Below, piece after piece: positions 16,573-33,535 of a stretch of DNA of 49,485 nucleotides. The translations under genes and the position numbers were made by a program. How positions within the stretch are numbered: the first letter of the stretch is position 1; every line of letters begins with the position of its first letter. The notes under the pieces are model-generated. The model had not been told where the DNA came from and ran no database searches. It saw only the letters and a program-made list of their open reading frames with translations. Location of the stretch: contig MFQC01000004.1 of NCBI GenBank assembly GCA_001784285.1, positions 1 through 49,485 of the forward strand. Reading direction: 5' to 3'. Source of the DNA: Candidatus Magasanikbacteria bacterium RIFCSPHIGHO2_02_FULL_48_18 (GTDB taxonomy: Bacteria; Patescibacteriota; Patescibacteriia; Magasanikbacterales; UBA922).

Positions 16573-16682
16573 TGTCAGTAGTTTATTGACAATCTGGACA
16601 TATTTCTCTTGACAAAGCATAGAAAAATTGCTTTATTATGTCAATATCCTTGTTGTGGATAATTGTAAATTATATATTGACA
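16573..16682. promoter_or_regulatory. Two 19-bp palindromic operators TGTCAAT-N5-ATTGACA in the divergent TrmB/HD intergenic region
   Basis: TGTCAGTAGTTTATTGACA (16573-91) and TGTAAATTATATATTGACA (16664-82), each one mismatch from consensus; half-site TGTCAAT at 16639. Confidence 0.55.
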
Positions 16683-16694
16683 TTTGTATCTGCT

Positions 16695-17318: not shown

Positions 17319-17493
17319 CCGCTCTTTTAAAAATATCACCTGTCATCGCGAGGCCTGCTCTTTTGGCACGTCTGCATTTTCTTTTTTTTGCATAACATCC
17401 GCCTCTGGCGGAAAAGAAAGAAGAACGGACGTGCCAAAAATTATTCCCGCAGGTGCGGGGGTGGTTTGAGGCCGATGTTGGAGGAACAAAAAA

Positions 17494-18849
17494 GTGGAAC
17501 AGAGAAAAATCAAAATCGAAGACGGTTCTCTTCTGGCCATGATCATGGCCATTTATGAACTCTGGAAACACTACACCGGCAACAGGGACCCCGACGCCGT
17601 GATCGCCGAGGCGATCCGGGCTGGGGCAGAACTTGAGGAGATGATCACGAGGAATGATTCCGGTTTCCACCAGGTCGTGGATGCGTTCACGCCGGGGATC
17701 GACGACCTGGTCGCGATCTTCCGCGAGTGCGCCCCTCACATGCCGGAGTTCGACGCGGACAGTCGCTTTTGGAAGATCGTCGAGGACTACCACCACGCCG
17801 TGGACCTGGCGACGAGCGCCGTGCCCAGCGTCAGCCAGACGGCCTTCATCCGGCGCGAGGCCATCAGCCGTGCGGCCGGGTGCATGGCCGACCTGATGCT
17901 CAGCGTGTTGACCGACGAGGACACGCCCGAACACCTGCGCACGGCGCAGATCAACGTCCAGGTGTTCATGCGCCGGGTGACGCGCTGGGGCGACCCGACG
18001 ACGGTCAACCAGGAAGTCCTCGATCAGATGAACGTTCTGTTTGGGCAGGTCTACCTGCTCAAACTCTTTGCGATCTTCGCAGTCAACGAGAGCCTACCCC
18101 AGACGCAGCGGGTCCCGTTGCACATTCTGGTCCTCTGCGGCTCGTTTAAGTACGGGCCGTATGCCGAGATCGTCGAGGCGTACGACGAGCAGATCATGCT
18201 GTTCGTCTGCCTCTACTGCATGTTCGGTCCCTGCGGATGTGCGAATCGGCCTCCGGTCGCTGGCGTGACCAAGATGAAGCAGCGTCAGCTCAAGTACCCG
18301 GAAGACGTCGGCGCCCAGATGGCCGCGGCGTCGGAGTTGACCACGGACCAGTTGGACTGGTTCATGTCGGTCGTGTATCTCATCCGCAACCTGAGCCAGG
18401 GGCTCACCCGCAGCGTCGACCGCGCCCGCTGGGAGTTTGACTCCGAGTTCCTGACCGGCGTCCGCATCGCGCGGACCGGCAGCATCGGTGCGGCCGCCCG
18501 CGCCGAGGGCCAGTTCGCGACGATTCGTCGCCGTCGCTGGGGCAAGGCCTTCATGCACGCCTGGCCGGGCGGTGCGAAGGATCCGCAGCGGCCCACTGCG
18601 GACGAGCACATCCAGGAGCTGCTCTACGCCGAGGACAGCCCCTACGATCAGCCCTTGTCGGACGCGGCGATCCAGCAGATCTTCCGCCACGCCGCGGCCG
18701 ACCCGATCGTCTGGGGGCCCTTGCCCCCAATCAACTACGGACTGCGGTTTTTGGACACGACGGTCGCGGCAATGGAGCAGTTCGTCTGCATGACGAACCG
18801 CAACCCGAACCGTACAGTCGATCTCGTTCTCGAGCTGCCCGCCGACTAA
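17494..18849 (+). CDS. High-GC orphan protein (451 aa)
   Basis: Long ORF with strong G/C third-codon bias; GGAGG at 17480-84 before the GTG start; no recognised family. Confidence 0.75.
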   Translation: MEQRKIKIEDGSLLAMIMAIYELWKHYTGNRDPDAVIAEAIRAGAELEEMITRNDSGFHQVVDAFTPGIDDLVAIFRECAPHMPEFDADSRFWKIVEDYHHAVDLATSAVPSVSQTAFIRREAISRAAGCMADLMLSVLTDEDTPEHLRTAQINVQVFMRRVTRWGDPTTVNQEVLDQMNVLFGQVYLLKLFAIFAVNESLPQTQRVPLHILVLCGSFKYGPYAEIVEAYDEQIMLFVCLYCMFGPCGCANRPPVAGVTKMKQRQLKYPEDVGAQMAAASELTTDQLDWFMSVVYLIRNLSQGLTRSVDRARWEFDSEFLTGVRIARTGSIGAAARAEGQFATIRRRRWGKAFMHAWPGGAKDPQRPTADEHIQELLYAEDSPYDQPLSDAAIQQIFRHAAADPIVWGPLPPINYGLRFLDTTVAAMEQFVCMTNRNPNRTVDLVLELPAD

Positions 18850-18992
18850 CCCCACCCCACCCGGCAGGTGTGGCCAAAGGCGCAATCCGCGCCGCCAACT
18901 CAATATCAAGGAGACGGTCCACCATGTAGGAGGCATGCGTGGACCGAACAAATGAGGTCATAAAATTTGTGCATTCATTTGTTCTCAAAACG

Positions 18993-19018
18993 AAAATCCT
19001 AACCAAAGTCAGGATTTT
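18993..19018 (-). terminator. Terminator downstream of the tRNA-like gene
   Basis: Minus strand AAAATCCTGAC-TTTG-GTTAGGATTTT then CGTTTT; fully paired only on the minus strand (G:U). Confidence 0.6.
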
Positions 19019-19021
19019 AGG

Positions 19022-19095
19022 TGGTGGACCGAGGGGGGATCGAACCCCAAAAACTGAGATAGCAAGCCCAGTCGTGGACCAACCACTCTCGGCCC
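19022..19095 (-). tRNA. Non-canonical tRNA-Ala(UGC)-like RNA, 74 nt, CCA encoded
   Basis: GGGCCGA GA GTGG-TTGGT-CCAC GA CTGGG-CTTGCTAT-CTCAG TTTT TGGGG-TTCGATC-CCCCC TCGGTCC A CCA. Cloverleaf with G3:U70, A73 and a TTCGA T-loop. Confidence 0.75.
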
Positions 19096-19111
19096 TTAGT
19101 CCACCAATAAA

Positions 19112-19140
19112 AGTATACTATATAGTTGACCTTTTGGCAC
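19112..19140 (-). promoter_or_regulatory. Putative promoter of the tRNA-like gene
   Basis: Minus strand GTGCCA, 17 nt spacer, TATACT (19117-12); predicted start near 19105. Confidence 0.45.
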
Positions 19141-19143
19141 TAG

Positions 19144-19214
19144 AAAAACCAAAAACCCCCTTGCGGGAGTTCTGGAATACGGAGTGGAACAGGTTCCACA
19201 CTGGAGCTTGCTAT
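19144..19214 (-). ncRNA. Putative small antisense RNA complementary to the tRNA-like RNA
   Basis: Consensus promoter upstream, no ORF, GUGGAA/UUCCAC hairpin, and a GCAA-capped terminator with U-tract. The 5' 33 nt align to the antisense of the tRNA D and anticodon arms. Confidence 0.65.
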
Positions 19215-19221
19215 AAAAATA

Positions 19222-19249
19222 ATTATATCACACAAAAATAGGATGTCAA
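19222..19249 (-). promoter_or_regulatory. Consensus sigma70 promoter of the small RNA
   Basis: Minus strand TTGACA (19249-44), 16 nt spacer, TATAAT (19227-22) with extended -10 TG. Confidence 0.75.
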
Positions 19250-19312
19250 ACGGTGGCGGCTCAAATTGTAAACAAACCAAATTCACAGTATACTGAATCC
19301 ACTCTTAATAAT

Positions 19313-19942
19313 ATGTCCGCTATGTCCTCCATCCCCAACATCCTCACCTTTCTCCACCGCGCCAACCAGCTCAAAACCATTATCCGGTACAAATCATCGC
19401 TGTCCAAAAACGGAGACACGGTTGCCGACCACTCCTGGCGCTTGGCGCTCATGGTTTTTGTAATCGGTGGTGAGCTACAAATCCCGGTCAACATTTCTCA
19501 TGCGATGAAATTGGCACTGCTACATGATTTGGCAGAGTTGGAAACAGACGATGTTGACGCCGTTGATGTTATAAAAAAGAAAGTGAAACTGGAAGACAAA
19601 CAAAAAAACGAAGCGGCAGCGATGAAACATATTGTAAAAGACATTTCCTTTGGGGGTGAAATTTTTGCCCTTTGGAACGAATACGAAAAACAACAAACCC
19701 TTGAAGCAAAGTTTGTGAAAGCGCTTGATAAAATTGAAGCGTTTCTTCACCTCGACGAAACCGGCACGAGCGTCTATATCCCAAAAGAATTTTATGCCGA
19801 CTACGCGGACGCCGCGGTCAATAGTTTTGATATTGCCTCAAAACATTTCCCGCCGCTCAAAGGCATCCTTGATCCAATCAAAACAGAGTTAAAACGAAAA
19901 TTTGAAGAAAATGGTGTGATGTGGGTGGAAAAAACGGCCTAA
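19313..19942 (+). CDS. HD-domain 5'-deoxynucleotidase-like phosphohydrolase (copy 2)
   Basis: LKTIIR...DTVADHSWR...LLHDLAE...EAKFVKALDKIE; paralogue of 16695..17318. Confidence 0.85.
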   Translation: MSAMSSIPNILTFLHRANQLKTIIRYKSSLSKNGDTVADHSWRLALMVFVIGGELQIPVNISHAMKLALLHDLAELETDDVDAVDVIKKKVKLEDKQKNEAAAMKHIVKDISFGGEIFALWNEYEKQQTLEAKFVKALDKIEAFLHLDETGTSVYIPKEFYADYADAAVNSFDIASKHFPPLKGILDPIKTELKRKFEENGVMWVEKTA

Positions 19943-20020
19943 ACCAATTTTTTTTACTATAGCAAAAGAACGGCGTCGGCCGTTTTTTGTTTTTTCCCCT
20001 TTATCTATGGAAAAGCAACC

Positions 20021-20049
20021 TTGTGCCCCCTCCAGGATTTTGGTACACT
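20021..20049 (+). promoter_or_regulatory. Promoter of the dTTP-synthesis operon
   Basis: TTGTGC, 17 nt spacer, TACACT with extended TG. Confidence 0.5.
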
Positions 20050-20077
20050 GCCCAAAGAATCCTAACCTCTTTGTTGT

Positions 20078-20554
20078 ATGCTCAAACCTCGCGACAACGC
20101 CATTTCTTGGGATGAGTGCTTTATGCGCATGTCCTATGTCATTGCCGACCGATCCAAAGACCCGAATACCCAGGTTGGCGCCGTGATTACGACACAAAAC
20201 AACGTTGCTGTTGGGATGGGATACAATGGCTTTCCAAAAAACGTGGACAACGACAAATTTCCCTGGGATCGCGACGGTGAATCGCTCAACACCAAATACC
20301 CCTATATAGTGCACGCCGAAGCAAACGCGATTTATAACGCAAACGCCAACACCGAAGGATGCAGACTGTATGTGAAACTCTTTCCTTGCAATGAGTGCGC
20401 AAAAGCGATTATCCAAAACGGCATCGTGGAAGTGGTGTACGAAAGCGACAAATACCGCGAACAGCCAAACTTTATCGCCGCGCGGCGCATGTTTGAAGCG
20501 GCCGGTGTCGAGTGCCGGCAATATATTTCCGAGTGGAGCAAAGAGAACGTATGA
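20078..20554 (+). CDS. dCMP deaminase
   Basis: SWDECFM, RSKDPNTQVGA, GYNG, HAEANA and PCNEC Zn motifs. Confidence 0.92.
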   Translation: MLKPRDNAISWDECFMRMSYVIADRSKDPNTQVGAVITTQNNVAVGMGYNGFPKNVDNDKFPWDRDGESLNTKYPYIVHAEANAIYNANANTEGCRLYVKLFPCNECAKAIIQNGIVEVVYESDKYREQPNFIAARRMFEAAGVECRQYISEWSKENV

Positions 20555-21102
20555 AAAAAATAATCTTTGGGTTTGCGGGACAAATGGCGAGCGGCAAAGG
20601 TACCGCTACGGCATATTTCAACACACGTCATGGCGCGAGTACCTATCGATTTTCCACCATGCTCCGCGACCTGTTGGATCGGCTTTACCTCCCCCAAAGC
20701 AGAGAAAACATGCAAGATATTTCGCGCATTATCCGAGAACAGTTTGGCGAAGAAACCTTGGCGCGCGTGATGGCCAAAGACGTTACAAACGACCCCGGTA
20801 ATCTCATTGTCATTGACGGCATCCGCAGGTCGGACGATGTGGCGCATCTTGTGGCACTTCCCGAATTTGTATTGGTTCACATTGTTGCGGATATTAAAAC
20901 ACGATACGAGCGGATTACCCATCGCGGTGAAAACAGCGATGATCAACAAAAAACCTTCGACGCATTCAAACACGATCACGAACAGGAAGCAGAACTCAAA
21001 ATTGCGAACGTGGCCCGTAGCGCACGGGAGACGGTTGACAATAACGGCACGTTTGAAGAGCTTTATGCGCAACTCGACCTGTTGCTTGAAAAATATTCAT
21101 AA
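20551..21102 (+). CDS. P-loop nucleotide monophosphate kinase-like protein
   Basis: GQMASGKGT Walker A, VIDGIR, RYER...RG; sits inside the deoxynucleotide operon. Confidence 0.75.
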   Translation: MKKIIFGFAGQMASGKGTATAYFNTRHGASTYRFSTMLRDLLDRLYLPQSRENMQDISRIIREQFGEETLARVMAKDVTNDPGNLIVIDGIRRSDDVAHLVALPEFVLVHIVADIKTRYERITHRGENSDDQQKTFDAFKHDHEQEAELKIANVARSARETVDNNGTFEELYAQLDLLLEKYS

Positions 21103-21107
21103 GCTCC

Positions 21108-21566
21108 ATGCGCATACACATAAAAAAACTGAAATCCGACGCCATTATCCCCTCCTATGGCCACCCGGGCGACATCGGCCTTGATTTGTATTCTTTGGAA
21201 GATTACACCCTCCAACCCGGAGAACGCCATGTGTTTTTTCATGGATTTGCCATGGAATTCCCGGAAGGATACGGCGCGATTGTCAAAGACAAAGGCGGCC
21301 CATCCGGAAAATTTGGCGTTGCCACGATTGGCGGCGTCTTTGACGCCGGTTACCGCGGCGAATACAACTCGTGTCTTATCAATCTTGGAGACGAACCGTT
21401 CCCTGTCAAAAAAGGACAAAAAATCGCCCAACTCATCGTGATCCCCGTCGTTATTGCGACGTTTGAAGAAGTGGACGAATTATCCGACAGCGCGCGCGGC
21501 GACGGCAAATACGGCAGTACCGGCATTTTCCACAATTCCTCTGTAGGGTATGAAGCACTGTCGTAA
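21108..21566 (+). CDS. dut: Trimeric dUTPase
   Basis: GLDL, GVFDAGYRGE, IAQL, RGDGKYGSTG; motif II is atypical. Confidence 0.87.
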   Translation: MRIHIKKLKSDAIIPSYGHPGDIGLDLYSLEDYTLQPGERHVFFHGFAMEFPEGYGAIVKDKGGPSGKFGVATIGGVFDAGYRGEYNSCLINLGDEPFPVKKGQKIAQLIVIPVVIATFEEVDELSDSARGDGKYGSTGIFHNSSVGYEALS

Positions 21567-21586
21567 AAAAATCCTGTCAAGCCTCT

Positions 21587-22459
21587 ATGCAATCATATTT
21601 ACAGATCGTCAAAAAAATTCTTGATGAAGGAGAACAAAAATCCGACCGTACCGGCACGGGAACGCGGAGCATTTCCGGCGTTCTGTTTGAGCATGACATG
21701 AAAAACGGCTTCCCGCTTCTTATCACAAAAAAAATGCCATTCAAATTGATCGCGACAGAATTGGAATTTTTTCTGAAAGGCAAAACCGACAAACAGTGGC
21801 TCCAGGAGCGGAACAACCATATTTGGGACGAATGGTGCAACCCAAAAAAAGTGCCATACGCCCATGATGAAGAGACAAAACAACGCATGGCCAAAGAGAG
21901 AGATCTCGGCGCGGTCTATGGATTTCAATGGCGGCACTTTAACGCTCCCTACGATAGTTTTGATACGGATTATGCCGACAAAGGCGTTGACCAATTAAAA
22001 AGACTCGTGGATACCCTCAAAACCAACCCATCCGATCGTCGCATGCTGGTCTCCGCGTGGAATCCGTGTATGCTGAACCAAATGGCACTGCCGCCGTGCC
22101 ATTATTGCTTCCAGGTGACCGTGACGAATAACCGGCTCAATCTTCTATGGAATCAGCGTTCGGTTGACGTCATGCTTGGATTGCCGTTTAATATCGCAAG
22201 TTACGCGCTACTCCTGCACCTTCTTGCAAAAAAATCCGGATTTGAGGAAGGCCGTCTGGTAGGTTTTTTGGGCGACACGCATATATACGATAACCACATT
22301 AATGGCGCCAAAGAGCAGCTCACGCGCAATCCTCATACCTATCCGTTGCCAAAAATTCAAACCGAACCGTTTACCTCAATCTTTGATTGGGAAGCCCCCC
22401 AAAGCACCATTATAAACTACCAAAGCTACCCGCGCATTGTGTTGCCCATTGCGGTATAA
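21587..22459 (+). CDS. thyA: Thymidylate synthase
   Basis: DRTGTGT, IWDEW, YGFQWR, LPPCH, QRSVD, GLPFNIASY, DTHIY. Confidence 0.96.
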   Translation: MQSYLQIVKKILDEGEQKSDRTGTGTRSISGVLFEHDMKNGFPLLITKKMPFKLIATELEFFLKGKTDKQWLQERNNHIWDEWCNPKKVPYAHDEETKQRMAKERDLGAVYGFQWRHFNAPYDSFDTDYADKGVDQLKRLVDTLKTNPSDRRMLVSAWNPCMLNQMALPPCHYCFQVTVTNNRLNLLWNQRSVDVMLGLPFNIASYALLLHLLAKKSGFEEGRLVGFLGDTHIYDNHINGAKEQLTRNPHTYPLPKIQTEPFTSIFDWEAPQSTIINYQSYPRIVLPIAV

Positions 22460-22473
22460 AAATAAAAACGCGT

Positions 22474-22944
22474 ATGATTACTCTCGTCGCCGCCATCGCT
22501 CAAAATAATTGCATTGGCAAAAATGGAGAAATCCCCTGGCATATTCCGGAGGATTTTAAACGCATGCAAGAAATAACAAAAGGGAAAGTTCTTATTATGG
22601 GCAGAAAAACGTGGGAGTCAATACCGGAAAAACGCCGGCCACTTCCGGAACGAAAAAATATCGTCATTACTCGGGACGTCAATTATCCACTTCCACCCAA
22701 CGTGGAACACTATGCCACGATTGAAAAAGCGCTGGAGGCGCACCCCGGTGAAGATATTGTCGGCTTTGGCGGACAAAAAATTTATGAAGAGATGATGCCG
22801 ATGGCTGATGTATTAGACATCACTCATGTCAACCAAACTATTGAAAACGGCGCCGCATTTTTTCCTGCTATTGATCCTGCTGTCTGGAAAGAATCCTGGC
22901 GAGAGGACCACGAGGGATTTTCTTTTGTACGCTATGCACGGTAA
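22474..22944 (+). CDS. folA: Dihydrofolate reductase
   Basis: IGKNGEIPWHIPED, MGRKTWESI, RPLPERKNIVITR, GG. Confidence 0.94.
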   Translation: MITLVAAIAQNNCIGKNGEIPWHIPEDFKRMQEITKGKVLIMGRKTWESIPEKRRPLPERKNIVITRDVNYPLPPNVEHYATIEKALEAHPGEDIVGFGGQKIYEEMMPMADVLDITHVNQTIENGAAFFPAIDPAVWKESWREDHEGFSFVRYAR

Positions 22945-23548
22945 ACTCATTGTCATCTACGGCATCAACAACCTCGGCAAAAGCACCCAGGCGAGACTAT
23001 TGGTCGAGCGTTTACAGCGAGAAGGGCACAAAACCCAATATCTGAAATACCCCATTTACGATCTCGCGCCGTCCGGCCACATGCTCAATCAATATCTGCG
23101 CGAAGATAATCCGTTTGGGCTCTCGGCACGCGAAGCCCAACTTTTGTATGTGCTCAATCGGACACAGGCAGAGCCGGCAATCAAAAAGAAACTCAAAGAA
23201 GGAATCCATATTGTCGCGGAAGACTATATCGGCACCGGACTCGCGTGGGGAATCGGCGCGGGCGTTGACGAAGCATTCATGAAAGACATCAATAGCCATC
23301 TTCTCAAAGAAGACCTAGTCTTTTTATTTAAGGGAGAACGATTTGTAAGCGCAACCGAAACGAATCATAAACACGAAAGCGATCAAGCGCTTCTTGAATG
23401 TGTTGCCGGTGTGCACGAGAGGCTTGGCAAAGAATATGGATGGATCGAAATAGCGGCCAATGACCCGATTGAAACCATCGCAGAAACGCTATGGGCGACC
23501 GTACGCAAAACATTGGAACAGGCCGTTCACGGACAGGTAATGTTGTAA
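22934..23548 (+). CDS. tmk: Thymidylate kinase-like protein
   Basis: N-terminal P-loop GKSTQ, KYP, LLYVLNR; follows thyA-folA; motifs are divergent. Confidence 0.7.
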   Translation: MHGKLIVIYGINNLGKSTQARLLVERLQREGHKTQYLKYPIYDLAPSGHMLNQYLREDNPFGLSAREAQLLYVLNRTQAEPAIKKKLKEGIHIVAEDYIGTGLAWGIGAGVDEAFMKDINSHLLKEDLVFLFKGERFVSATETNHKHESDQALLECVAGVHERLGKEYGWIEIAANDPIETIAETLWATVRKTLEQAVHGQVML

Positions 23549-23614: not shown

Positions 23615-24370
23615 ATGCTCATCTCCACCAAAGATATCATCGTGCAAAGCATCCATCTCTACCAAAAAAATTATAAACTCTTTTTTCGATACTTGGGCCT
23701 TTTGGCCATACCCACGGTGTTTCTCACGCTTCTTGGTTTTCTGTTCAAATTGAGTTCTCCAGAACGATTTTGGACCAACATCATTATTTTTCTTGCACTT
23801 TCGATCGCCGTCTATATCGTGAGCTTATGGTTGAGCTTGGCCTTAACCCGGGTTATTGCGCTTCGACAAGAGCAAAAACAGCCGCAAGATATTCCTTCCG
23901 AACTGAAATTTGCATCCTCCATTTTGGGAACCGCGATTGCGGTGTCGCTGTTGATTGGTATTATTGTTCTTGGCGGCATTATCCTCTTTCTTATTCCGGG
24001 TATTATTTTTGCCATTTGGTTTGCCTTTTCTCTCTACGCAGTTATCCTCGACAACCAAAAAGCAATCCCCGCGCTCAAAACCAGCAAACATCTGGTTTCA
24101 GGACGGTTGGGAGCGGTGTTTGTCCGTCTGCTTGTCCCCAACCTTCTTTTTGGCATTGTGCTTCTCGCTTTTCAATATATTATCCAGCTTCCGCTCACAT
24201 CTCTCTCAGAAGCAATATTTTCTTCCCAAACCGGCATCTTCGCAGGGACATTGGCCGCGGCCGCTCTTGGGTCAGTCGCTGGCTTGTTTCTTACCCCGCT
24301 CAGCATTGCGGCGCCCGTCATACTGTATATGAATCTTCAAAAAAATCCTATCGAAAAAACCAATGCATAA
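23615..24370 (+). CDS. Integral membrane protein (GDPD membrane-domain-like)
   Basis: About 5-6 TM helices; LFLIPGIIFAIWF...ALKTSKHLVSGR pattern. Confidence 0.7.
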   Translation: MLISTKDIIVQSIHLYQKNYKLFFRYLGLLAIPTVFLTLLGFLFKLSSPERFWTNIIIFLALSIAVYIVSLWLSLALTRVIALRQEQKQPQDIPSELKFASSILGTAIAVSLLIGIIVLGGIILFLIPGIIFAIWFAFSLYAVILDNQKAIPALKTSKHLVSGRLGAVFVRLLVPNLLFGIVLLAFQYIIQLPLTSLSEAIFSSQTGIFAGTLAAAALGSVAGLFLTPLSIAAPVILYMNLQKNPIEKTNA

Positions 24371-25925
24371 TGTCTATACCCCTATCATCGGCATGGAAGT
24401 ACATGTTGAGCTCAAAACCAAGAGCAAAATGTTTTGTTCGTGCGTCAACGACCCCGAAGCCAAAGAGCCAAATACAACCATATGCCCCATATGTCTTGCA
24501 CATCCCGGGACGCTCCCCGTTCCCAATCGCGACGCGATTGTCCGGACGGTATTGATTGGCAAAGCGCTTTCATGCGATATCCGATCGCTGTCAAAATTTG
24601 ACCGCAAGCATTATTTTTATCCCGACCTTCCGAAGGCGTACCAAATTTCACAATACGACGAACCCATTGCCGAGCACGGAACCATCCTCCTCAAATTTCC
24701 TTTGGAAGACAACGCGCGGGATGAGGCGAAGATTGGAATATGCCGCGTTCATCTCGAAGAAGACACGGCAAAACTGCTTCACGGGACAGATGGCATGACA
24801 CTGGTTGATTTCAATCGCGCCGGCGTCCCGCTCGTGGAAATTGTCACGGATCCTGATTTTCAATCCGCAACAGAAGCCAAAATCTATTGTCAGGAACTGC
24901 GTCTCCTTTTCCGTGCGCTTGGCGTGAGCGACGCGGATATGGAAAAAGGACACATGCGATGCGAAGCCAATGTCTCTGTCCAAAAGGCAGGAACGTTTGA
25001 CATAGTGGATGGAGCAGTCAAACCCCGACGGGCATGCATCCTCAACAACAAAGTCGAACTCAAAAATCTGAATTCTTTCCGCGCGGTTGAAAAAGCCATT
25101 CTCTATGAAATAGAACGCCAAACCGCGCTCGCTGAATCCGGAGAAACATGGGAACAGCAAACGCGCGGCTGGGACGACGCGAAAGGAGAAACCGTGCTCC
25201 AGCGGCTGAAAGAAAATGCGAATGATTACCGATATTTCCCCGAACCAGACATTCCCCCGTTTGAACCGCTTCAGATCGCAGGACACTGCAATCTCCCCGA
25301 ATTACCCCAGGCAAAACGGGAACGCTTTCATGAGGAATACGGCTTTTCCTATGCAGACGCGATGATATTGACCCAAGACGCTGTCTGGGCCGATTTTACA
25401 GAAGCCGTTATGAGTGAACTCGTTGATTGGCTTCATAGCCTTCCGGGAGATACGCAAGAAATGGACAGTATTCAAGAACAAAAGAAAAACAAAATTGCGC
25501 GCCTCGCGGCCGGATGGCTCACGACCAAACTGATGGGATTTTTGAACGAACAGGGAAAAACCATTTCTGATGTCCGCTGCAGTCCTGAAAATTTTGCCGA
25601 ACTGATTGCGCTCCTCTATTCCGGGCGAGTCAACGCAACCAATGGATACAAAATTCTTGTGATCATGGCCTCGTCCGGCACTGATAAAGACCCAACGCAC
25701 ATTATGGAAGAAAAAGGATACGGACAAATTTCTGATATAGAAGCGCTGGGCTCGGTCATCGATGAAGTCATCCAAAATCATCCAGTCCAGGTTCAGCAAT
25801 GGAAGGACGGAAAAGAGCCGATCCTGAAATTTTTGATTGGGATGGTGATGAAAGCGACCGAGGGCGGCGCGGATCCAACAGCGGTGGAAAAAATATTGAG
25901 AGAAACATTGTCTGAAAAGCCATAG
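24363..25925 (+). CDS. gatB: Asp/Glu-tRNA amidotransferase subunit B
   Basis: IGMEVHVEL, FDRKHYFYPDLPK, HLEED, DFNRAGVPLVEIVT, DYRYFPEPD. Confidence 0.96.
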   Translation: MHNVYTPIIGMEVHVELKTKSKMFCSCVNDPEAKEPNTTICPICLAHPGTLPVPNRDAIVRTVLIGKALSCDIRSLSKFDRKHYFYPDLPKAYQISQYDEPIAEHGTILLKFPLEDNARDEAKIGICRVHLEEDTAKLLHGTDGMTLVDFNRAGVPLVEIVTDPDFQSATEAKIYCQELRLLFRALGVSDADMEKGHMRCEANVSVQKAGTFDIVDGAVKPRRACILNNKVELKNLNSFRAVEKAILYEIERQTALAESGETWEQQTRGWDDAKGETVLQRLKENANDYRYFPEPDIPPFEPLQIAGHCNLPELPQAKRERFHEEYGFSYADAMILTQDAVWADFTEAVMSELVDWLHSLPGDTQEMDSIQEQKKNKIARLAAGWLTTKLMGFLNEQGKTISDVRCSPENFAELIALLYSGRVNATNGYKILVIMASSGTDKDPTHIMEEKGYGQISDIEALGSVIDEVIQNHPVQVQQWKDGKEPILKFLIGMVMKATEGGADPTAVEKILRETLSEKP

Positions 25926-25998: not shown

Positions 25999-26074
25999 AT
26001 GCGTGTTGCAAAACCAAAAACAATCACACCATTTTGTATACAACGGCCACTCCGATGAGGAGTGGTGTTTTTTT
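25999..26074 (+). promoter_or_regulatory. pyrL-like attenuator: 19-aa leader ORF (25999..26058) plus terminator
   Basis: MRVAKPKTITPFCIQRPLR* ends in the loop of CCACTCC-GATGA-GGAGTGG, followed by T7 ending 2 nt before the pyrB ATG. Confidence 0.6.
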
Positions 26075-26076
26075 CT

Positions 26077-27000
26077 ATGTCAAATTTTAAAAACCGTGAC
26101 ATTATTTCAATCAAAGAGTTAGATGAAACCGACATACTTCACGTGCTCAAACACGCTGAATCGCTGAAAAAAAATCCCAAACATGATCTCTTGGGTGGGC
26201 AGGTGATGGGCAGTTGTTTTTTTGAACCTTCGACGCGCACACGATTGTCATTTGAAACCGCCATGCAACGTCTCGGCGGCAGGGTCGTAGGATTTGCCGA
26301 CCCAAATATGACTTCAACATCCAAAGGAGAGACCGTCTATGATAGTATAAAAATCATTGGCCAATACGTGGATGTGATCGCCATGCGCCATCCGCTCGAA
26401 GGCGCGGCCCGACGCGCGGCTGAAGCCACGGACAAACCTATTTTGAATGGCGGCGACGGCGCCAATCAGCATCCTACTCAAACCTTGCTTGATCTGTTTA
26501 CGATTAAAGAATGTCAAAAAAAACTGAACAATCTCACCATTGCCATGGTCGGTGATCTGAAATATGGCCGCACGGTCCACTCTCTTGCGCAGGCCATGGT
26601 TCACTTCAGCCCCACCTTTTATTTTGTCGCCCCTGATTTCCTTCAAATGCCTCCCTCTATTTTAGATGAACTCCGAGACGCTGGCATAAAATTTTTTCTT
26701 AAAAACACTCTTCAAGAAGTGATCAGCAAAGTTGACGTCCTTTATATGACTCGCATTCAAAAAGAGCGTTTTTCAGACATTTCCGAATACGAAAAAGCAA
26801 AAAATCTCTATATCCTTGATACGCCGCTTTTAAAAAAAGTAAAGCCGAACATGCGTATTCTTCACCCTCTGCCCCGCGTCAATGAAATCGCTCCATGCGT
26901 TGATGACACTCCTTATGCGTATTATTTTCAGCAGGCCAAAAATGGGCTCTATGTGCGCCAAGCGCTCCTCGGCCTGGTGTTAGGAAAATTAGCCAGTTAA
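26077..27000 (+). CDS. pyrB: Aspartate carbamoyltransferase catalytic subunit
   Basis: FFEPSTRTRLSF, HPTQTLLD, GDLKYGRTVHSL, TRIQKER, HPLPR. Confidence 0.96.
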   Translation: MSNFKNRDIISIKELDETDILHVLKHAESLKKNPKHDLLGGQVMGSCFFEPSTRTRLSFETAMQRLGGRVVGFADPNMTSTSKGETVYDSIKIIGQYVDVIAMRHPLEGAARRAAEATDKPILNGGDGANQHPTQTLLDLFTIKECQKKLNNLTIAMVGDLKYGRTVHSLAQAMVHFSPTFYFVAPDFLQMPPSILDELRDAGIKFFLKNTLQEVISKVDVLYMTRIQKERFSDISEYEKAKNLYILDTPLLKKVKPNMRILHPLPRVNEIAPCVDDTPYAYYFQQAKNGLYVRQALLGLVLGKLAS

Positions 27001-27011
27001 CTCTTGTTTCT

Positions 27012-27461
27012 ATGCGTGCGTACAAAGTATTCGCAATCAAAGACGGTACGGTCATTGACCATATTCCAAGCGGGAAAGCATTTGCGTTAATCGAACTTCT
27101 TGGATTGCATAAGAGTGACAGCATTGTCACCATGGGTACTCATTTCAGGAGCAAAAAAATAGGAAAAAAAGACATCGTCAAAATCGAACATAAGGAACTC
27201 AGTCCAGAAGAAGTCAATCAAGTATCGTTGATTGCACCTTCGGCTTCCATCAACATCATTCGAAATTTTAAAGTAGCAAAAAAATTTATTATTACCATTC
27301 CTCCCGTGTTTAAAGATATCATCACCTGCCCCAATCCCAAATGTATTACCAATAGCGAATCTGCGCCATCCAAATTTTATTCCAAAATGAAAAATGGGCA
27401 TCTCGCTCTCCGGTGTCACTATTGTGAAAAAATATATATGCAAGAAGAACTCCACCGTTAG
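27012..27461 (+). CDS. pyrI: Aspartate carbamoyltransferase regulatory subunit
   Basis: AIKDGTVIDHI, KDIVKIE, CPNPKCI...CHYCE Zn site. Confidence 0.95.
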   Translation: MRAYKVFAIKDGTVIDHIPSGKAFALIELLGLHKSDSIVTMGTHFRSKKIGKKDIVKIEHKELSPEEVNQVSLIAPSASINIIRNFKVAKKFIITIPPVFKDIITCPNPKCITNSESAPSKFYSKMKNGHLALRCHYCEKIYMQEELHR

Positions 27462-27466
27462 CCACT

Positions 27467-28582
27467 ATGCCTCGTTTTGTCACGATTCCAGCGCTCATTG
27501 ATCCACATGTCCATTTTCGCACGCCTGGTTTTGAACACAAAGAAGACTGGGGAACTGCGGGCCACGCGGCACTTATGGGCGGCGTCACGATGGTGTTTGA
27601 CATGCCGAATACCACCCCCGCGACAACAACTCTAGAACTGGTGCAACAAAAAAAATCCATTATTAACCAAACGCTTGAGAAATATAAACGCACTCTGCGC
27701 TACCATGTCTACTTAGGAGCGAGTACGGATAATATCCAAGAAATCAGCCGCGCCAAAAAAGAGATTGTTGGAGTGAAATTATTCATGGGGGCAAGCACGG
27801 GTAGCCTGCTCGTAGACGATGAGAATAATCAGGCAGAAATTTTTCAGGAATGCGCACGCCTCAAAATCCCCTTGGCCGTTCACGCCGAAGACGAAGCCAC
27901 ACTGCAAAAAGCCAAAACCGCGTTTACGGGCGCTCCAACGATCTTTAATCATGGAACACTTCGGCCGCGCGATGCCGCGATCGTTGCAACCGAACGAGCA
28001 ATCCGAATGGCGGAAAAATACGGAACCACGCTCTACGTACTGCACGTGAGCACAAAAGAAGAAATAGAATTGGTTCGCTCGGCCAAAAAACAAGGCATTG
28101 CCGTGTATGCCGAAGTGACGCCTCACCATTTGTTTTTAACTGAAGATGATCTCCATAACCTAGGCAATCTTGGAAAGATGAACCCGCCACTCCGAACAGG
28201 GGCCGACCAAACGGCTCTCTGGGCAGGAATCCATGACGGCACTGTAGACACCATCGGCACCGACCACGCGCCACACACGCTCGAAGAAAAAGCCCTGCCC
28301 TATACCGAAGCGCCCTCAGGTGTGCCAGGCATTGAAACGTATTTGGCACTACTCCTTGACGCGCATAATAAACGGCAGATTTCTTTAGAGCAAATTACCC
28401 GTCTCTGCCGAACGAACATCCAAAAGATATTCAAGATTCTCGATAACAATGATACGGTAACCATAGATGTCGATGCAGTAAAAACCATACGAAACGAAGA
28501 CATGACGACCAAATGCACATGGTCTCCCTTTGCCGGCACAACACTCAAGGGCTGGCCTATTATTACTCAGATTAAAAATTAA
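27467..28582 (+). CDS. pyrC: Dihydroorotase
   Basis: DPHVHFR, DMPNT, VHAE, EVTPHHL, KMNPPLR, TDHAPH. Confidence 0.9.
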   Translation: MPRFVTIPALIDPHVHFRTPGFEHKEDWGTAGHAALMGGVTMVFDMPNTTPATTTLELVQQKKSIINQTLEKYKRTLRYHVYLGASTDNIQEISRAKKEIVGVKLFMGASTGSLLVDDENNQAEIFQECARLKIPLAVHAEDEATLQKAKTAFTGAPTIFNHGTLRPRDAAIVATERAIRMAEKYGTTLYVLHVSTKEEIELVRSAKKQGIAVYAEVTPHHLFLTEDDLHNLGNLGKMNPPLRTGADQTALWAGIHDGTVDTIGTDHAPHTLEEKALPYTEAPSGVPGIETYLALLLDAHNKRQISLEQITRLCRTNIQKIFKILDNNDTVTIDVDAVKTIRNEDMTTKCTWSPFAGTTLKGWPIITQIKN

Positions 28583-28590
28583 AAAGTTTT

Positions 28591-29550
28591 ATGCGCCACA
28601 TAATCTCTCTCAAAGAACAAAGCCGGGAAGATATTCTCGATATGATTCGTTTGGCACAAGATATCAAAGCCAAACGACAGACAGGAGAACTGACCAATTA
28701 CCTCCCGAACAAAACACTCATCATGCTGTTTCAAAAAACATCCACACGCACCCGTCTTTCCTTTGAAGCGGCGATGACGGAGCTCGGCGGACATGCAATT
28801 TTTCTTGATGCGCGCACAACCCAGTTCGCGCTCACCGATTTTCGAGATGAAATCCAGGCCGTGATGCGGTTTGGCCATGTCCTCATGTTTCGCGCGCAAA
28901 AAGCAGAAGACGTCATTGCCTCCGCTTCATTCAGCCGCATTCCCGTCATTGACGCGTGCAGTGAAAAATATCATCCGGCCCAGGCCTTGAGCGATCTCTT
29001 GACCATGGCCGAACATGCTGGCGGCATTGAAAAAGTCAAAAAAATCGCGTGGCTTGGAATTGAAAACAATGTGTCAAACACGCTCATGCTTGCCGCGGTG
29101 AAACTCGGCATTACAGTTGCAATCGCCGCTCCGGAAAAAGATCCGGGCAGTATTGACGAAGAACTCTTGGCGCAGGCCGACGCCACAGGGCTTGTGACGC
29201 GAACCCGTGATGTGGCCGAAGCTGTGCGCGATGCCGATTTTGTTCATACCGATACATGGATGAACATGGAATTCTTCGACAATGGAAACGTAAAACCGGC
29301 GTTTCAAGAAGAGTATGAACGAAGAAAAACTCTTTTTCTTCCCTACCAGCTCAACGCGAATATCATCAACACCTACGCGCCCCAAGCAAAAATTATGCAC
29401 TGCATGCCGTGTCATATTGGTTATGAAATCAGCCGAGACGCGGTTGACCATCCCAACAGCATTATTTTTGACCAAGCGGAAAACCGAATGCACATGCAAA
29501 AAGCGATACTGCTCTGGCTCTTGGGAAAAGAACATGCCATGAGTGCCTAA
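28591..29550 (+). CDS. argF: Ornithine carbamoyltransferase-like transcarbamylase
   Basis: FQKTSTRTRLSFE, HPAQ, HCMP, FDQAENRMH; SMG loop is altered. Confidence 0.75.
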   Translation: MRHIISLKEQSREDILDMIRLAQDIKAKRQTGELTNYLPNKTLIMLFQKTSTRTRLSFEAAMTELGGHAIFLDARTTQFALTDFRDEIQAVMRFGHVLMFRAQKAEDVIASASFSRIPVIDACSEKYHPAQALSDLLTMAEHAGGIEKVKKIAWLGIENNVSNTLMLAAVKLGITVAIAAPEKDPGSIDEELLAQADATGLVTRTRDVAEAVRDADFVHTDTWMNMEFFDNGNVKPAFQEEYERRKTLFLPYQLNANIINTYAPQAKIMHCMPCHIGYEISRDAVDHPNSIIFDQAENRMHMQKAILLWLLGKEHAMSA

Positions 29551-29552
29551 AT

Positions 29553-30491
29553 ATGCTCGACGTCACATTGTGTGGAGTACAATTTCAAAATCCGCTTGTT
29601 CTTGCGTCCGGTATTTTGGGGCTAACCGGCGCCGGCATGTATCGCGTCATTGAAAGCGGCGCGGGCGCCGTTACCATGAAATCCGTCTCCGAACAAGAAA
29701 GGCCGGGCCATCCAAACCCAACCATGGTTGGAAACCAAACCTATTTTCTCAATGCGGTTGGTCTTTCCAATCCAGGAATTGAAGAAGCGAAAAAAGAAAT
29801 AGAGCATTTTAAACAGCTCTCTCACGCGCCGCTCATTGGCAGTATTTTTGCCGGCACGCGTGATGGATTTGTGCGTCTGGCAGAACACATTGACGAAATG
29901 CCAATTGATCTGTTGGAAGTGAACCTGTCATGTCCAAACGTAGGACAAGAATTTGCCGAACCATTTGCATATTCAAAAGAAGCCGTCAAACAAATTACAA
30001 AAGACATAAAAGAAAAAACCAAAAAACCTATATCAATAAAATTGTCGCCCAATGTTTGGAATATCGCGGAATTGGCAAAAGCGGCAGAAGCGGCCGGCGC
30101 CGACGCCATCACAGCGGTCAATACGGTGAGCGGCATGGCGATTGACGTCCGCGCGCGCCGCCCCATTCTCCACAATACGCACGGCGGCGTCTCCGGACCG
30201 GCCCTTTTCCCCATTGCCTTGAAATGCGTCTATGATATGTACGAAGCGGTAAAAATTCCAATTATTGGCACCGGCGGCGTTACAACCGGAGAAGACGCGC
30301 TTGCCATGATTATGGCCGGGGCAACCTTGGTCGGCGTGGGGTCGGCTGTATATTATCGAGGAGAGGATTGTTTCCAAAAAATAACCAATGAAATAAAAGA
30401 CACCATGAATAGCGAAGGAATAAAAAATCTCGATGAAATTCGCGGTATTGCCCATGAAACAATGAACAATAAACAAATAACAATTCGCTAG
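29553..30491 (+). CDS. pyrD: Dihydroorotate dehydrogenase class 1B catalytic subunit
   Basis: LASG, NAVGLSNPG, NLSCPN, KLSPN, NT, GGVSGP. Confidence 0.93.
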   Translation: MLDVTLCGVQFQNPLVLASGILGLTGAGMYRVIESGAGAVTMKSVSEQERPGHPNPTMVGNQTYFLNAVGLSNPGIEEAKKEIEHFKQLSHAPLIGSIFAGTRDGFVRLAEHIDEMPIDLLEVNLSCPNVGQEFAEPFAYSKEAVKQITKDIKEKTKKPISIKLSPNVWNIAELAKAAEAAGADAITAVNTVSGMAIDVRARRPILHNTHGGVSGPALFPIALKCVYDMYEAVKIPIIGTGGVTTGEDALAMIMAGATLVGVGSAVYYRGEDCFQKITNEIKDTMNSEGIKNLDEIRGIAHETMNNKQITIR

Positions 30492-30534
30492 GAAATTTTT
30501 TGTTAATTGTTAATTGTTCGTTGTTAATTGATCT
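30458..30534. repeat. Inverted heptamer arrays at the pyrD/pyrK junction
   Basis: AACAATG AACAATA AACAAAT AACAATT (30458-85) face TTGTTAA TTGTTAA TTGTTCG TTGTTAA TTGATCT (30500-34). Confidence 0.8.
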
Positions 30535-31347
30535 ATGCGCCACGACTCACCGCTAATGCTTCCCATTGCCAAGGTGACACAGGAAAATTCCTCCGTCAAA
30601 ACATTTTGGTTTGATTTTGCTCTGCAGAGTCATCCTGGCCAATTTGTGATGCTCTGGATTCCAGGAGTTGACCAAAAACCATTTTCCATTGCCTACGACG
30701 ACGGAAGGCGATTTGGCCTGAGCATTTTTGCCGTTGGACCTCATTCCAAAAAACTTTTTGATCATGCTGTGGGCGAACGCGTGGGCGTTACCGGGCCATA
30801 TGGAAATCCATTTTCCGTCCAAAAAAATCGCCACTATATCACCGTGGCCGGCGGATATGGCGCGGGGCCTCTTGGCTTTCTTGCCGAACGCCTTGAAGAG
30901 ACCTGCTCAACTGTGGATTTTTGCATCGGGGCGCGCACGAGCGATCTTTTACTCTTTGAAAAACTGGCAAAAAAACTCTCACATGTTACGGTCCATGTGG
31001 CTACTGATGACGGTAGCCGAGGGCATCACGGATATGTCACGGACATCGTGCGAGAACTGCTTGAAAAAAAGAACAAACAAAAAAAAGATACTATTCTCTC
31101 TGCCTGCGGGCCAGAACTCATGGAAAAAGCCGTGCTCAATCTTGCAAATGAATTCAATGTGGACTGTGACATCAGTATTGAACGGTATATGAAGTGCGGC
31201 GTCGGCATCTGCGGCCAATGCTGTGTCGACGATTCCGGCATCCGCCTTTGCACAGAGGGGCCGGTGGTCAATCGGAAAACCGCAAATACCATTGTTGAAT
31301 TTGGAAAATACCACCGCGATAAAACCGGAAAAAAAATTGACTATTAA
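30535..31347 (+). CDS. pyrK: Dihydroorotate dehydrogenase electron transfer subunit
   Basis: PGQFVM, KPFSI, GPYGN, AGGYG, CGPE.M, MKCGVGICGQC...C.EGPV [2Fe-2S] motif. Confidence 0.92.
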   Translation: MRHDSPLMLPIAKVTQENSSVKTFWFDFALQSHPGQFVMLWIPGVDQKPFSIAYDDGRRFGLSIFAVGPHSKKLFDHAVGERVGVTGPYGNPFSVQKNRHYITVAGGYGAGPLGFLAERLEETCSTVDFCIGARTSDLLLFEKLAKKLSHVTVHVATDDGSRGHHGYVTDIVRELLEKKNKQKKDTILSACGPELMEKAVLNLANEFNVDCDISIERYMKCGVGICGQCCVDDSGIRLCTEGPVVNRKTANTIVEFGKYHRDKTGKKIDY

Positions 31348-31356
31348 ATATACCCT

Positions 31357-32004
31357 ATGTCCCAGGAAGTTATATCCCTTTTGCAAACCGTCGATGCCAT
31401 TTTTCTCAACGACCATTTTGTCGGCACATCTGGCCGTCATCTTGAAGGATATATCAACAAAGATGCCCTTTTCCCTCACACAAAAGCCACGTCTCGAATT
31501 GGCGAAATTTTTGCTGAGACGTTCAAAGCGTACGATATTGATACCGTGGCCGCGCCAGCCATGGGCGGGATTATTTTATCCCAATGGACCGCATATCATT
31601 TATCCAAAATAAAAGGCAAAGAGATTTATGGCGTTTATGCGGAAAAAAAAGATGATACGCTTCTGTTTACCCGAGGGTATGATGCGTTTATCAAAGACAA
31701 AAATGTTCTCGTCATTGAAGACCTCACCACCACCGGCGGATCGCTGAAAAAAGTGGTTGACGCGGTACGGACAGCCGGAGGAAATGTTGCGGCAGTCAGT
31801 GTTATGGTCAATCGAGACCCGGAATTGGTAACAGAATCACTTTTTGGCGCGCCGTTCATTCCTCTGGCCGAACTTCGCATCCGCTCATTTGAGGAACAAG
31901 AATGTCCATTGTGCAAAAATAATGTTCCGATTAACACGATGGTCGGGCATGGGAAACAATATTTAGAGGAGAAAGAGAAAAAATATCTAATATCTAATTC
32001 CTAA
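31357..32004 (+). CDS. pyrE: Orotate phosphoribosyltransferase
   Basis: HFVGTSGRH, PRPP motif VIEDLTTTGGS, C-terminal CPLC. Confidence 0.88.
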   Translation: MSQEVISLLQTVDAIFLNDHFVGTSGRHLEGYINKDALFPHTKATSRIGEIFAETFKAYDIDTVAAPAMGGIILSQWTAYHLSKIKGKEIYGVYAEKKDDTLLFTRGYDAFIKDKNVLVIEDLTTTGGSLKKVVDAVRTAGGNVAAVSVMVNRDPELVTESLFGAPFIPLAELRIRSFEEQECPLCKNNVPINTMVGHGKQYLEEKEKKYLISNS

Positions 32005-32056
32005 TTTCTAAATTTTTTGACATTTGAATTTTGGACTTTGTTTAGATATTAGAAAT
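31983..32056. repeat. Inverted heptamer arrays at the pyrE/pyrF junction
   Basis: ATATCTA ATATCTA ATTCCTA ATTTCTA (31983-32010) face TTGACAT TTGAATT TTGGACT ... TAGATAT TAGAAAT (to 32056). Confidence 0.75.
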
Positions 32057-32064
32057 TTCAACCT

Positions 32065-32838
32065 ATGCTTCCTTACACCGATCGCATCTCCTACACCACC
32101 AACCCCACCACCCAAAGGCTGTTTGCTCTCATGGATGAAAAGCAGACTAACCTGTGCGTGGCGGCAGATGTTACCACTCGCGCTGAGTTACTCCTTCTCG
32201 CTGACATTCTTGGGCCGGAAATATGCGTACTAAAAACCCACATCGATATTATCGAAGATTTTGATGATGATTTGATCATTCAATTGCAACGGCTATCCGA
32301 AGAACACAACTTTCTTATTTTTGAAGACCGCAAATTTGCGGACATTGGCAATACGGTTAAATACCAGTACCAAAATGGCATCTACCACATTGCCGACTGG
32401 GCGCATATCACCAATGCGCATACGGTCCCGGGTCCGGGTATTATTGAAGGATTGAAAAAAATTGGCCTGCCAAAAGGACGCGGACTGCTTCTCCTTGCCG
32501 AAATGAGTTCAAAAGGAACGCTGGCAAAAGATTCCTACACGCAAGAAACATTGGAAATGGCAAAACAACACCGTGATTTTGTTATCGGATTTATTACCAC
32601 AAAAAAATTATTGGATGACCCCATGTTTATCAACTTCACACCAGGAGTCCAGCTCACTGAGGGAGAAGACACCCTCGGACAGCAATACCTCACGCCAAAA
32701 AAAGTGATCGGCGAATATCATTCCGATATTATTATTGTCGGACGAGGCATTTACGGATCCTCAAACCCTCTCGAGGAAGCAAAAAAGTATCGCGAGAGAG
32801 GCTGGAGCGCGTATCAAAAAACGATTGCCTCCGCGTAA
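32065..32838 (+). CDS. pyrF: Orotidine-5'-phosphate decarboxylase
   Basis: [41 protein letters not shown]. Confidence 0.95.
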
Positions 32839-32956
32839 CTTCTTCAATAAATATCAGACCAGTTGGCAAATTAAGACCAATATGGTATGCTACATTCAGC
32901 ATATTTTAGCAAAATTTTTTCTTTTTCATCACAAAAAGACAGAAAAATCGTTTTGT

Positions 32957-33535
32957 ATGATAGAACATCAGGCACAAGAAAACATGGACCACATGAGAGA
33001 ACGCATTGAAAAAGCGAAACAGGGCGATTCGGAGGCTTTTGCGTATCTCTACAATACCTACCTCACCCCCTTATATCGATTTATTTATTTTCGGGTCAAA
33101 AACACGCAGGACGCGGAAGATTTGACCCAAACGGTTTTCATCAAAGCATGGGAGGCTATTGGATCATACGAAGATAAAGGATATTCCTTTTCTTCCTGGC
33201 TCTACACCATTGCGAGAAACACCGTTACCGACTATTGGAAAAAGAAAAAACCGATCCTTGTCGCTGACCCCAAAGAAACGTTTGGGCATATTGCCGACAC
33301 AAAAGAAAACTCACATGAAAAGATGGCCAATCGCGAACTTCAAGAAGAAATCATTCACCATATCCAAACGTTAAGCGAGGAACAGCAAACCATTCTCATC
33401 CTCAAATTTATGAGCGAGCGCACCAATGAAGAAATTGAGGAAATAACCGGAAAACGCCAGGACGCGATCCGCGCCCTGCAATATCGCGCGCTCAAAACGC
33501 TCAAAAAACGTATGAAAGGCTTACCAACTGTATGA
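32957..33535 (+). CDS. ECF RNA polymerase sigma factor (true start may be 32984)
   Basis: GD.EAF..LY, DAEDLTQTVF.KAW, F.SWLYTIARN, region 4 L.EEQ...L. Confidence 0.9.
   Translation: MIEHQAQENMDHMRERIEKAKQGDSEAFAYLYNTYLTPLYRFIYFRVKNTQDAEDLTQTVFIKAWEAIGSYEDKGYSFSSWLYTIARNTVTDYWKKKKPILVADPKETFGHIADTKENSHEKMANRELQEEIIHHIQTLSEEQQTILILKFMSERTNEEIEEITGKRQDAIRALQYRALKTLKKRMKGLPTV

Follow-up and report, generated by a model that had tools for sequence, protein, structure and literature searches.

We analyzed a 49,485-nucleotide stretch of DNA (hereafter the window), an entire contig (MFQC01000004.1) of Candidatus Magasanikbacteria bacterium RIFCSPHIGHO2_02_FULL_48_18, an ultra-small bacterium of groundwater. 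The contig carries a pyrimidine biosynthesis operon in the order pyrB-pyrI-pyrC-OTC-like-pyrD-pyrK-pyrE-pyrF. These eight co-directional and intact open reading frames (ORFs) occupy positions 26062–32838 with intergenic gaps of 2–60 bp. All the six steps from carbamoyl phosphate (CP) to UMP are encoded in the operon (pyrE scored below its curated cut-off but has the phosphoribosyltransferase (PRTase) domain), and its fourth gene codes for a protein resembling ornithine carbamoyltransferase (OTC). Genes for carbamoyl-phosphate synthetase (CPS; carA and carB) were not recognizable in the genome. From sequence comparisons, we estimate a probability of about 55% that the OTC-like enzyme supplies CP from citrulline for this carAB-less operon.

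The preliminary description of this DNA had noted a tightly packed pyr operon without carA or carB in the window. This was confirmed, as the eight ORFs match named families and no CPSase domain was detected in the window ORFs of at least 70 amino acids (51 called, 48 scanned). The same held for the whole genome (G000; 1.10 Mb in 12 contigs, 99.16% complete, the window being contig C4), where none of carAB, arcA and arcC exceeded the cut-offs. The profile search of the genome for carB returned nothing over the cut-off and only ATP-grasp ligases at ≤30 bits, and that for carA returned only unrelated weak matches (≤27.8 bits), far below the cut-off. CarA and CarB of a relative, G024, used as tblastn queries against G000, gave nothing at E ≤ 1e-3. 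The models of carbamate kinase (arcC) and arginine deiminase (ADI) also had no match in the whole genome. On the consumer side, pyrG and pyrH are present beside the pyrB–pyrF operon, and a NodU/CmcH-type carbamoyltransferase, a further consumer of CP, is encoded at C7:194-2008. With a complete pyrB–pyrF set, pyrG, pyrH and this additional consumer, and without carA, carB or arcC, the organism needs a source of CP.

Two other candidates for this source were rejected. The ATP-grasp proteins of contig C8 are RimK-like, Ddl-like or amino-acid-ligase-like, and the top match to a CPS model was 30 bits. A second gene of the AA-kinase fold, considered as a carbamate kinase, is proB and belongs to a proB-proC-proA operon; besides it, only pyrH has this fold in G000. 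One of the C8 proteins (C8:5278-8979; L001 112-2631) is 839 amino acids long, has two ATP-grasp modules and adjoins a leucyl-aminopeptidase-like gene. Its N-terminal half is amino-acid-ligase-like and its C-terminal half is D-Ala-D-Ala-ligase-like (208 bits, cut-off 243).

We propose that the OTC-like protein is a reversible ornithine carbamoyltransferase of a clade specific to the candidate phyla radiation (CPR) and DPANN, which in G000 would work in the catabolic direction (citrulline + Pi to ornithine + CP). The CP would be drawn off by the co-transcribed aspartate carbamoyltransferase (ATCase) and by the irreversible later steps to UMP, and probably also by the NodU-type enzyme encoded elsewhere in the genome. 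No ATP would be spent on CP. Citrulline, which is probably the substrate, would presumably be taken up, because G000 has neither an ADI gene nor one for a protein like the arginine synthetase ArcE. Gene content, the loss of carAB, conservation, gene neighbourhoods and selection are read from the sequences themselves, whereas which substrate is used, in which direction the reaction runs and where citrulline comes from are deduced.

The comparative data were collected from three sets of genomes. The relatives survey comprised 40 relatives plus G000 (41 genomes), neighbourhoods were counted over 80 loci of the OTC-like gene, and carB, pyrB and arcC were scored in the first 50 ortholog-bearing genomes, four of which are identical to relatives G020 and G022–G024. 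The named relatives of the window proteins are from Candidatus Magasanikbacteria and other CPR groups. In an even sample of the phylum, an ortholog at ≥62% identity was present in only 5 of 400 other genomes; this number is too small for phylum-wide co-occurrence statistics, and the ortholog-locus genomes were therefore used instead. Intact orthologs were observed in seven of the 40 relatives (G020–G025 and G030), and broken copies in G007 and G034. Over the 41 genomes, carB passed its cut-off in 5 and pyrB in 8, and argG was present in 4.

Eight of the 50 ortholog-bearing genomes have carB, 24 have a pyrB that passes the cut-off and 13 have arcC. The 24 pyrB-positive genomes comprise 7 with carB, 3 with arcC only and 14 with neither. 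At the level of loci, 36 of the 80 have at least one pyr gene and 32 have three or more, while carB occurs in nine. Two gene orders occur among these operons: in one, the OTC-like gene separates pyrC from pyrD, and in the other it follows pyrF. Carbamate kinase is encoded in 12 loci, in nine of them directly upstream on the same strand, and it is genuine (413 bits for a representative, cut-off 358). In five loci, a 440-amino-acid ArcE-like gene is found in the order ArcE-like, arcC, OTC-like. A NodU-type carbamoyltransferase occurs in six loci, argG or argH in four (within the same operon), and 25 loci lack all of pyr genes, arcC, NodU-type genes and carB. ADI was not detected in any of 23 ortholog-bearing genomes; the ArcE-like protein was also found in none of 23, in a search without a positive control. 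The adjacency of the orthologs to ATCase, to carbamate kinase (often together with the arginine-synthetase-like gene) and to NodU-type consumers suggests that the clade behaves as a generator of CP.

Two closed, single-contig genomes illustrate these arrangements. In G230, a glycan gene cluster contains the OTC-like gene next to a NodU-type carbamoyltransferase, and the genome has no carB, arcC or pyrB; this arrangement suggests a carbamoylation of glycans fed by the OTC-like enzyme. G344 has gatB, pyrB, pyrI, the OTC-like gene, a dihydroorotate dehydrogenase (DHODH) variant and a PRTase fusion, without carAB or arcC. NodU/CmcH-type genes adjoining or near the OTC-like gene were seen in the G230 locus (L181, G230:C1, 7839-10817) and in L051, L086, L092, L096, L108 and L120. 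In four other genomes (G443, G452, G456 and G477; loci L054, L063, L067 and L088), the carbamate kinase adjoins an ATCase-like ORF of 490–507 amino acids that scores near the pyrB cut-off and may be a kinase-fed ATCase.

We also located the position of carAB in the relatives that keep these genes. In G024, gatB is followed by a small ORF and then by carA, carB, pyrB, pyrI, pyrC, OTC-like, pyrD, pyrK, pyrE and pyrF. The same order from carA to pyrF is found in G023 (L027, compared with L028 of G024), where RuvC and unknown ORFs, and not gatB, lie upstream. The slot of carA-carB is thus the interval between gatB and pyrB, which in G000 is a junction of 136 bp without carAB. Contigs from four sequencing runs of three studies, none flagged as a possible source, span this junction with zero differences. 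Over the 80 loci, gatB is directly before pyrB in nine and carB in six. The preliminary description had placed the OTC-like gene where CPS would be expected, and this did not hold: the gene occupies the same slot in the operons that retain carAB (the six loci with carB next to pyrB), so it is not a positional replacement of CPS.

An alternative, which we regard as unlikely, is that the protein is an anabolic ArgF making citrulline from ornithine and CP for ArgG and ArgH, with CP coming from an unrecognized enzyme or from outside the cell. G000 does have argG and argH, which are adjacent (C3:240332-243045), and its proBAC genes could supply a route to ornithine. The ancestral-looking operon with carA-carB would also suit such an enzyme, as would the argG or argH genes within the operon at four loci. 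Against this, no source of CP was found in G000, and CP is labile, which makes its uptake unlikely. The arginine pathway of G000 is also incomplete, since no argB-type kinase was found; a complete pathway elsewhere in the genome had been named as counter-evidence to the citrulline route, and the presence of argG and argH agrees with part of it. Furthermore, argG was present in only 3 of the 39 ortholog-bearing genomes tested, and in none of the seven that have both carB and pyrB. From this distribution, the OTC-like gene appears not to be an arginine-synthesis gene. For the ornithine that would be released in the proposed catabolic direction, no class-III aminotransferase was found in G000 with the single query used; a distant homolog of pyridoxal phosphate-dependent decarboxylases is encoded at C1:101295-102386.

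The features of the OTC-like protein bear on its substrate. It has both OTCace domains and the motifs S51-T-R-T-R55 and H128-P-A-Q131, of which R53, T54, H128, P129 and Q131 are invariant in an alignment of 19 sequences; we take STRTR and HPxQ to be the CP-binding motifs of OTC, DxxxSMG its ornithine-binding loop and HCLP the motif of its catalytic-site cysteine. The last of these reads H270-C-M-P273, with Leu changed to Met and the Cys retained in all six aligned clade members. The loop is replaced by D221-T-W-M-N-M-E followed by five extra residues relative to the Pyrococcus furiosus OTC (1a1s; DVWASMG), and this form is conserved across the CPR/DPANN clade. The curated OTC cut-offs were narrowly missed (NF001986, 292.9 versus 306; TIGR00658, 276.9 versus 280.85), although OTC models remain the top-scoring ones, and the best solved-structure match is the P. 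furiosus OTC (E 1e-60). Close relatives from CPR and DPANN genomes are 72–80% identical to it. The clade is tight (64–79% identity), with the next full-length relatives at 47% and then ∼40% in a library clustered at 50% identity, and in the tree its members form a monophyletic group that a long stem separates from canonical OTCs. The OTC-like protein is also the most conserved one of the operon, being 75% identical to that of L061 when the pyr proteins are 42–69% identical. Orthologs labelled as Woesearchaeota or Nanoarchaeota (L050, L055, L064, L075, L092, L093 and others) are 68–78% identical to it and are nested among the CPR sequences in the tree, which points to transfer between the domains.

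The replaced SMG with its insertion, the scores below the OTC cut-offs, the long stem and the absence of an argG link in most genomes could also be explained if the enzyme makes or uses CP with an amine substrate other than ornithine, that is, with another ureido donor. We find this improbable. Asp221, Asn160, Met226 and Cys271 are retained at the positions where OTC binds ornithine. At five loci, the genes stand in the order ArcE-like, arcC, OTC-like, which also speaks against a different amine. A further argument comes from G058 (L184; G058:C40, 3808-13408), in which a carbamate kinase (404 bits) is followed by a 778-amino-acid fusion. Over its first 432 residues, this protein matches the ArcE-like one at 57% identity, and its last 310 residues form an OTC domain that is 50% identical to the window protein, has the same type of loop (DTWVNME) and passes both OTC cut-offs. 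Joined as it is to an ArcE-like protein, this OTC domain with its N-M-E loop suggests that the altered loop would still serve ornithine and citrulline. Downstream of the fusion come an ATCase that carries an MGS-like domain as a fusion partner (in CPS, this is the large subunit's allosteric domain) and, after it, pyrF, pyrC and pyrE. The G058 fusion also connects enzymes of this type with arginine breakdown as well as with pyrimidine genes. Long ORFs akin to it were seen in G134 and G156. The ArcE-like assignment, a tentative likeness to ArcE (TK2200), is made from names in the source records ('cyclic 2,3-diphosphoglycerate synthase', 'GTPase'), a weak structure match to cyclic 2,3-diphosphoglycerate synthetase and a published description (PMC11032458); that paper reports that homologs of arginine synthetase are annotated in this way.

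Selection on the pyr genes was estimated from the ratio of nonsynonymous to synonymous substitution rates (dN/dS) in lineages without carB and arcC. For the pair L065/L066, the values were 0.043 (pyrB), 0.124 (pyrC), 0.044 (OTC-like) and 0.147 (pyrF), with 0.069 for gatB, and for L059/L061 they were 0.06–0.16 across six genes. Overall, close pairs of this kind gave 0.04–0.16 at a dS of ∼0.6–1.1, similar to gatB (0.07), which indicates strong purifying selection on the pyr genes of these lineages. Operons with and without carAB are interleaved on the OTC-like tree, with well-supported mixed groups such as L103 with L110 and L116; the eight carAB-bearing operons need seven changes, and at least two of these are required by branches with good support. 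This interleaving and the low dN/dS together mean that the loss of carAB with retention of the pyr and OTC-like genes is recurrent and long-lived. Judged from these patterns, the carAB-less state is stable and not decaying. The many partial operons (gatB with OTC-like; pyrB-pyrI-OTC-like; the broken copies in G007 and G034) would suit a relic in which the genes left after the loss of carAB are useless and decay, but this is very improbable in view of the eight intact ORFs, the presence of those catalytic motifs that were read, the low dN/dS and the recurrence of the carAB-less state across the tree and in 14 of 24 pyrB-positive genomes.

The supply of CP for pyrimidines by a catabolic OTC is a mechanism already known genetically in Thermococcus, of which the G000 case would be a variant. 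Michimori et al. 2024 described arginine synthetase (ArcE) and remarked that pyrimidine synthesis can draw on CP made by OTC (PMC11032458). According to Michimori et al. 2026, arcE or arcB knockouts of Thermococcus kodakarensis, which lacks CPS, are pyrimidine auxotrophs, unlike the arcC knockout, and the defect is partly relieved by a foreign CPS (PMC13260591); this is the precedent for OTC-fed pyrimidine synthesis. A 2018 review lists catabolic transcarbamylases as a third class of CP source (PMC6022934). Like the Thermococcales with their ArcE-ArcB-ArcC system, G000 has no CPS, a complete pyrimidine pathway and an OTC as the sole candidate producer of CP. Carbamate kinase is dispensable for CP supply in that system, and OTC-like orthologs also occur in ArcE-like/arcC/OTC clusters, with a sister form fused to the ArcE-like protein. 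Unlike that system, G000 has no ArcE-like gene, ADI or arcC, its OTC gene is embedded in the pyr operon, and the protein, ∼40% identical to canonical OTC representatives, falls into a clade of its own in which the SMG loop is altered.

With ArcB, the catabolic OTC of the ADI pathway, the enzyme would share the reaction and its direction, and the arcC adjacency in 12 of 80 loci corresponds to the signature that the review gives for catabolic transcarbamylases; it differs in that arcA is missing from all 23 genomes searched and arcC from G000. In common with anabolic OTCs (ArgF/ArgI; TIGR00658, NF001986), it has the fold, the two Pfam domains and the motifs STRTR, HPxQ and HCxP, but it lies just under both cut-offs, has DTWMNME and an insertion for DxxxSMG, and in 36 of 39 genomes with an ortholog occurs without argG. 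Among the papers listed in a literature search, judged by titles and the openings of abstracts, we found no description of a pyr-embedded OTC in CPR or DPANN; the ArcE distribution tables of Michimori et al., which possibly list CPR members, lie outside this search.

Several observations weigh against the proposed role. The altered loop and the sub-threshold OTC scores are two of them, and the presence of argG and argH in G000, which makes an anabolic use of the gene conceivable, is a third. As the gene holds its own slot with or without carAB, its presence is not an adaptation to the loss of CPS. Citrulline phosphorolysis is thermodynamically unfavourable and, according to the 2018 review, must be coupled to carbamate kinase (PMC6022934). 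Of the 50 genomes, 15 have none of carB, arcC and pyrB. In G121 (complete, four contigs), which also has none of these three genes, the OTC-like gene stands alone, and no partner is evident in its surroundings. Only gatB-pyrB-pyrI-OTC-like, followed by miaA, is kept in L183 (G357), L049, L117 and L126, with no other pyr gene within the locus stretch, and tblastn found neither pyrC nor pyrF in the closed genome of G344. In G040, a pyrB and a match resembling pyrF were found, but neither carB nor an ortholog of the OTC-like gene. Completeness of the 50 locus-derived genomes is not reported. Finally, neither a tblastn match to the ArcE-like protein nor an APC-family amino-acid permease was found in G000, so that the searches for a source or carrier of citrulline (ADI, ArcE-like, APC-type permease) were all negative. 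The earlier suggestion that UMP is made from scavenged citrulline or another ureido donor by reverse transcarbamylation is thus partly supported, by the complete UMP pathway, the lack of a recognizable CPS or carbamate kinase and the comparative evidence, but not with regard to the source of citrulline.

A broader and more speculative reading, which we hold to be somewhat doubtful, is that the N-M-E-loop OTC clade is a portable CP generator, spread horizontally through CPR and DPANN, that passes the carbamoyl group of scavenged citrulline to whatever consumer has been retained in a lineage, be it ATCase (for pyrimidines), carbamate kinase (for ATP) or a NodU-type enzyme (for the carbamoylation of glycans). 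If so, it would explain the repeated loss of CPS among CPR/DPANN symbionts. On this reading, G000-like genomes, with argG-argH and without ADI or ArcE, might even obtain citrulline from arginine by reversal of ArgH and ArgG, which would give both the substrates of ATCase. If the OTC-like enzyme does feed the pyr operon, the de novo pyrimidine pathway, which a minority of ultra-small bacteria retain, would in these start from a ureido amino acid of the host or community, and not from bicarbonate, ammonia and two molecules of ATP. Citrulline or arginine would then be a key exchanged metabolite for CPR/DPANN symbionts, the loss of CPS without loss of the pathway would be explained, and the CP source of the Thermococcales would extend to two large uncultured radiations. 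For annotation, the absence of carAB alone should not make pyrimidine synthesis 'incomplete' when pathway completeness is scored in such genomes, and the automatic label 'ornithine carbamoyltransferase, arginine biosynthesis' is misleading for the OTC-like gene.

The operon genes were identified with curated NCBIfam/TIGR models and their cut-offs, together with Pfam domains, and all lie on the + strand. The catalytic chain of ATCase, pyrB (26077–27000; TIGR00670, 367.3 bits, cut-off 236.95), has an ORF open from a GTG at 26062 and is followed by the regulatory chain, pyrI (27012–27461; TIGR00240, 168.9 bits, cut-off 148.55). Dihydroorotase, pyrC (27467–28582; TIGR00857, 297.8 bits, cut-off 279), has its HxH, Lys and DHAPH motifs intact as read from the sequence. 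The OTC-like carbamoyltransferase of the CPR/DPANN clade (P0001) lies at 28591–29550. It precedes the class 1B DHODH genes, pyrD for the catalytic subunit (29553–30491; NF005574, 340 bits, cut-off 269) and pyrK for the electron-transfer subunit (30535–31347; NF000796, 268.6 bits, cut-off 224). The last two genes are pyrE, orotate phosphoribosyltransferase (31357–32004; TIGR01367, 121.4 bits, below the cut-off of 150.25; Pfam Pribosyltran), and pyrF, orotidine monophosphate decarboxylase (32065–32838; TIGR01740, 198.9 bits, cut-off 92.3). Only pyrE and the OTC-like gene failed to pass their curated cut-offs.

The upstream neighbour on the same strand is gatB (24363–25925; NF004012, 560 bits), separated from pyrB by the 136-bp gap. 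A GC-rich hairpin with a run of seven T (GCCACTCC-GATGA-GGAGTGGT; 26046–26076, + strand) ends 1 nt before the pyrB ATG, and could be a terminator of gatB or a UTP-sensing attenuator in the pyr leader. Of 32 loci, 21 have a comparable hairpin with a T-run 5′ of pyrB; it was absent from all seven loci with carB directly before pyrB. Further upstream of the operon are genes for two YfbR-like HD nucleotidases, dut, thyA, tmk and a membrane protein, then gatB. The paralogous YfbR-like HD 5′-deoxynucleotidases, dUTPase, thymidylate synthase and thymidylate kinase lie at 16638–23548, and their families recur near the operon in other loci; with these neighbours, the operon is part of a pyrimidine-nucleotide island. 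Downstream are an ECF sigma factor, unknown ORFs, miaA and miaB. The ECF-type sigma factor ORF (32735–33535), called with a TTG start, overlaps the final 100 nt of pyrF, and its real start is probably later.

A third transcarbamylase-like ORF of G000 (C3:282476-283420), considered as an alternative enzyme, has degenerate CP motifs, with SIRTM for STRTR and no HPxQ. In the region C3:278000-289000 (L036 2696-8403), this divergent ORF is flanked by two His-swivel proteins of the phosphoenolpyruvate-utilizer type and an M20D amidohydrolase, and the same paralog is also present in G024.

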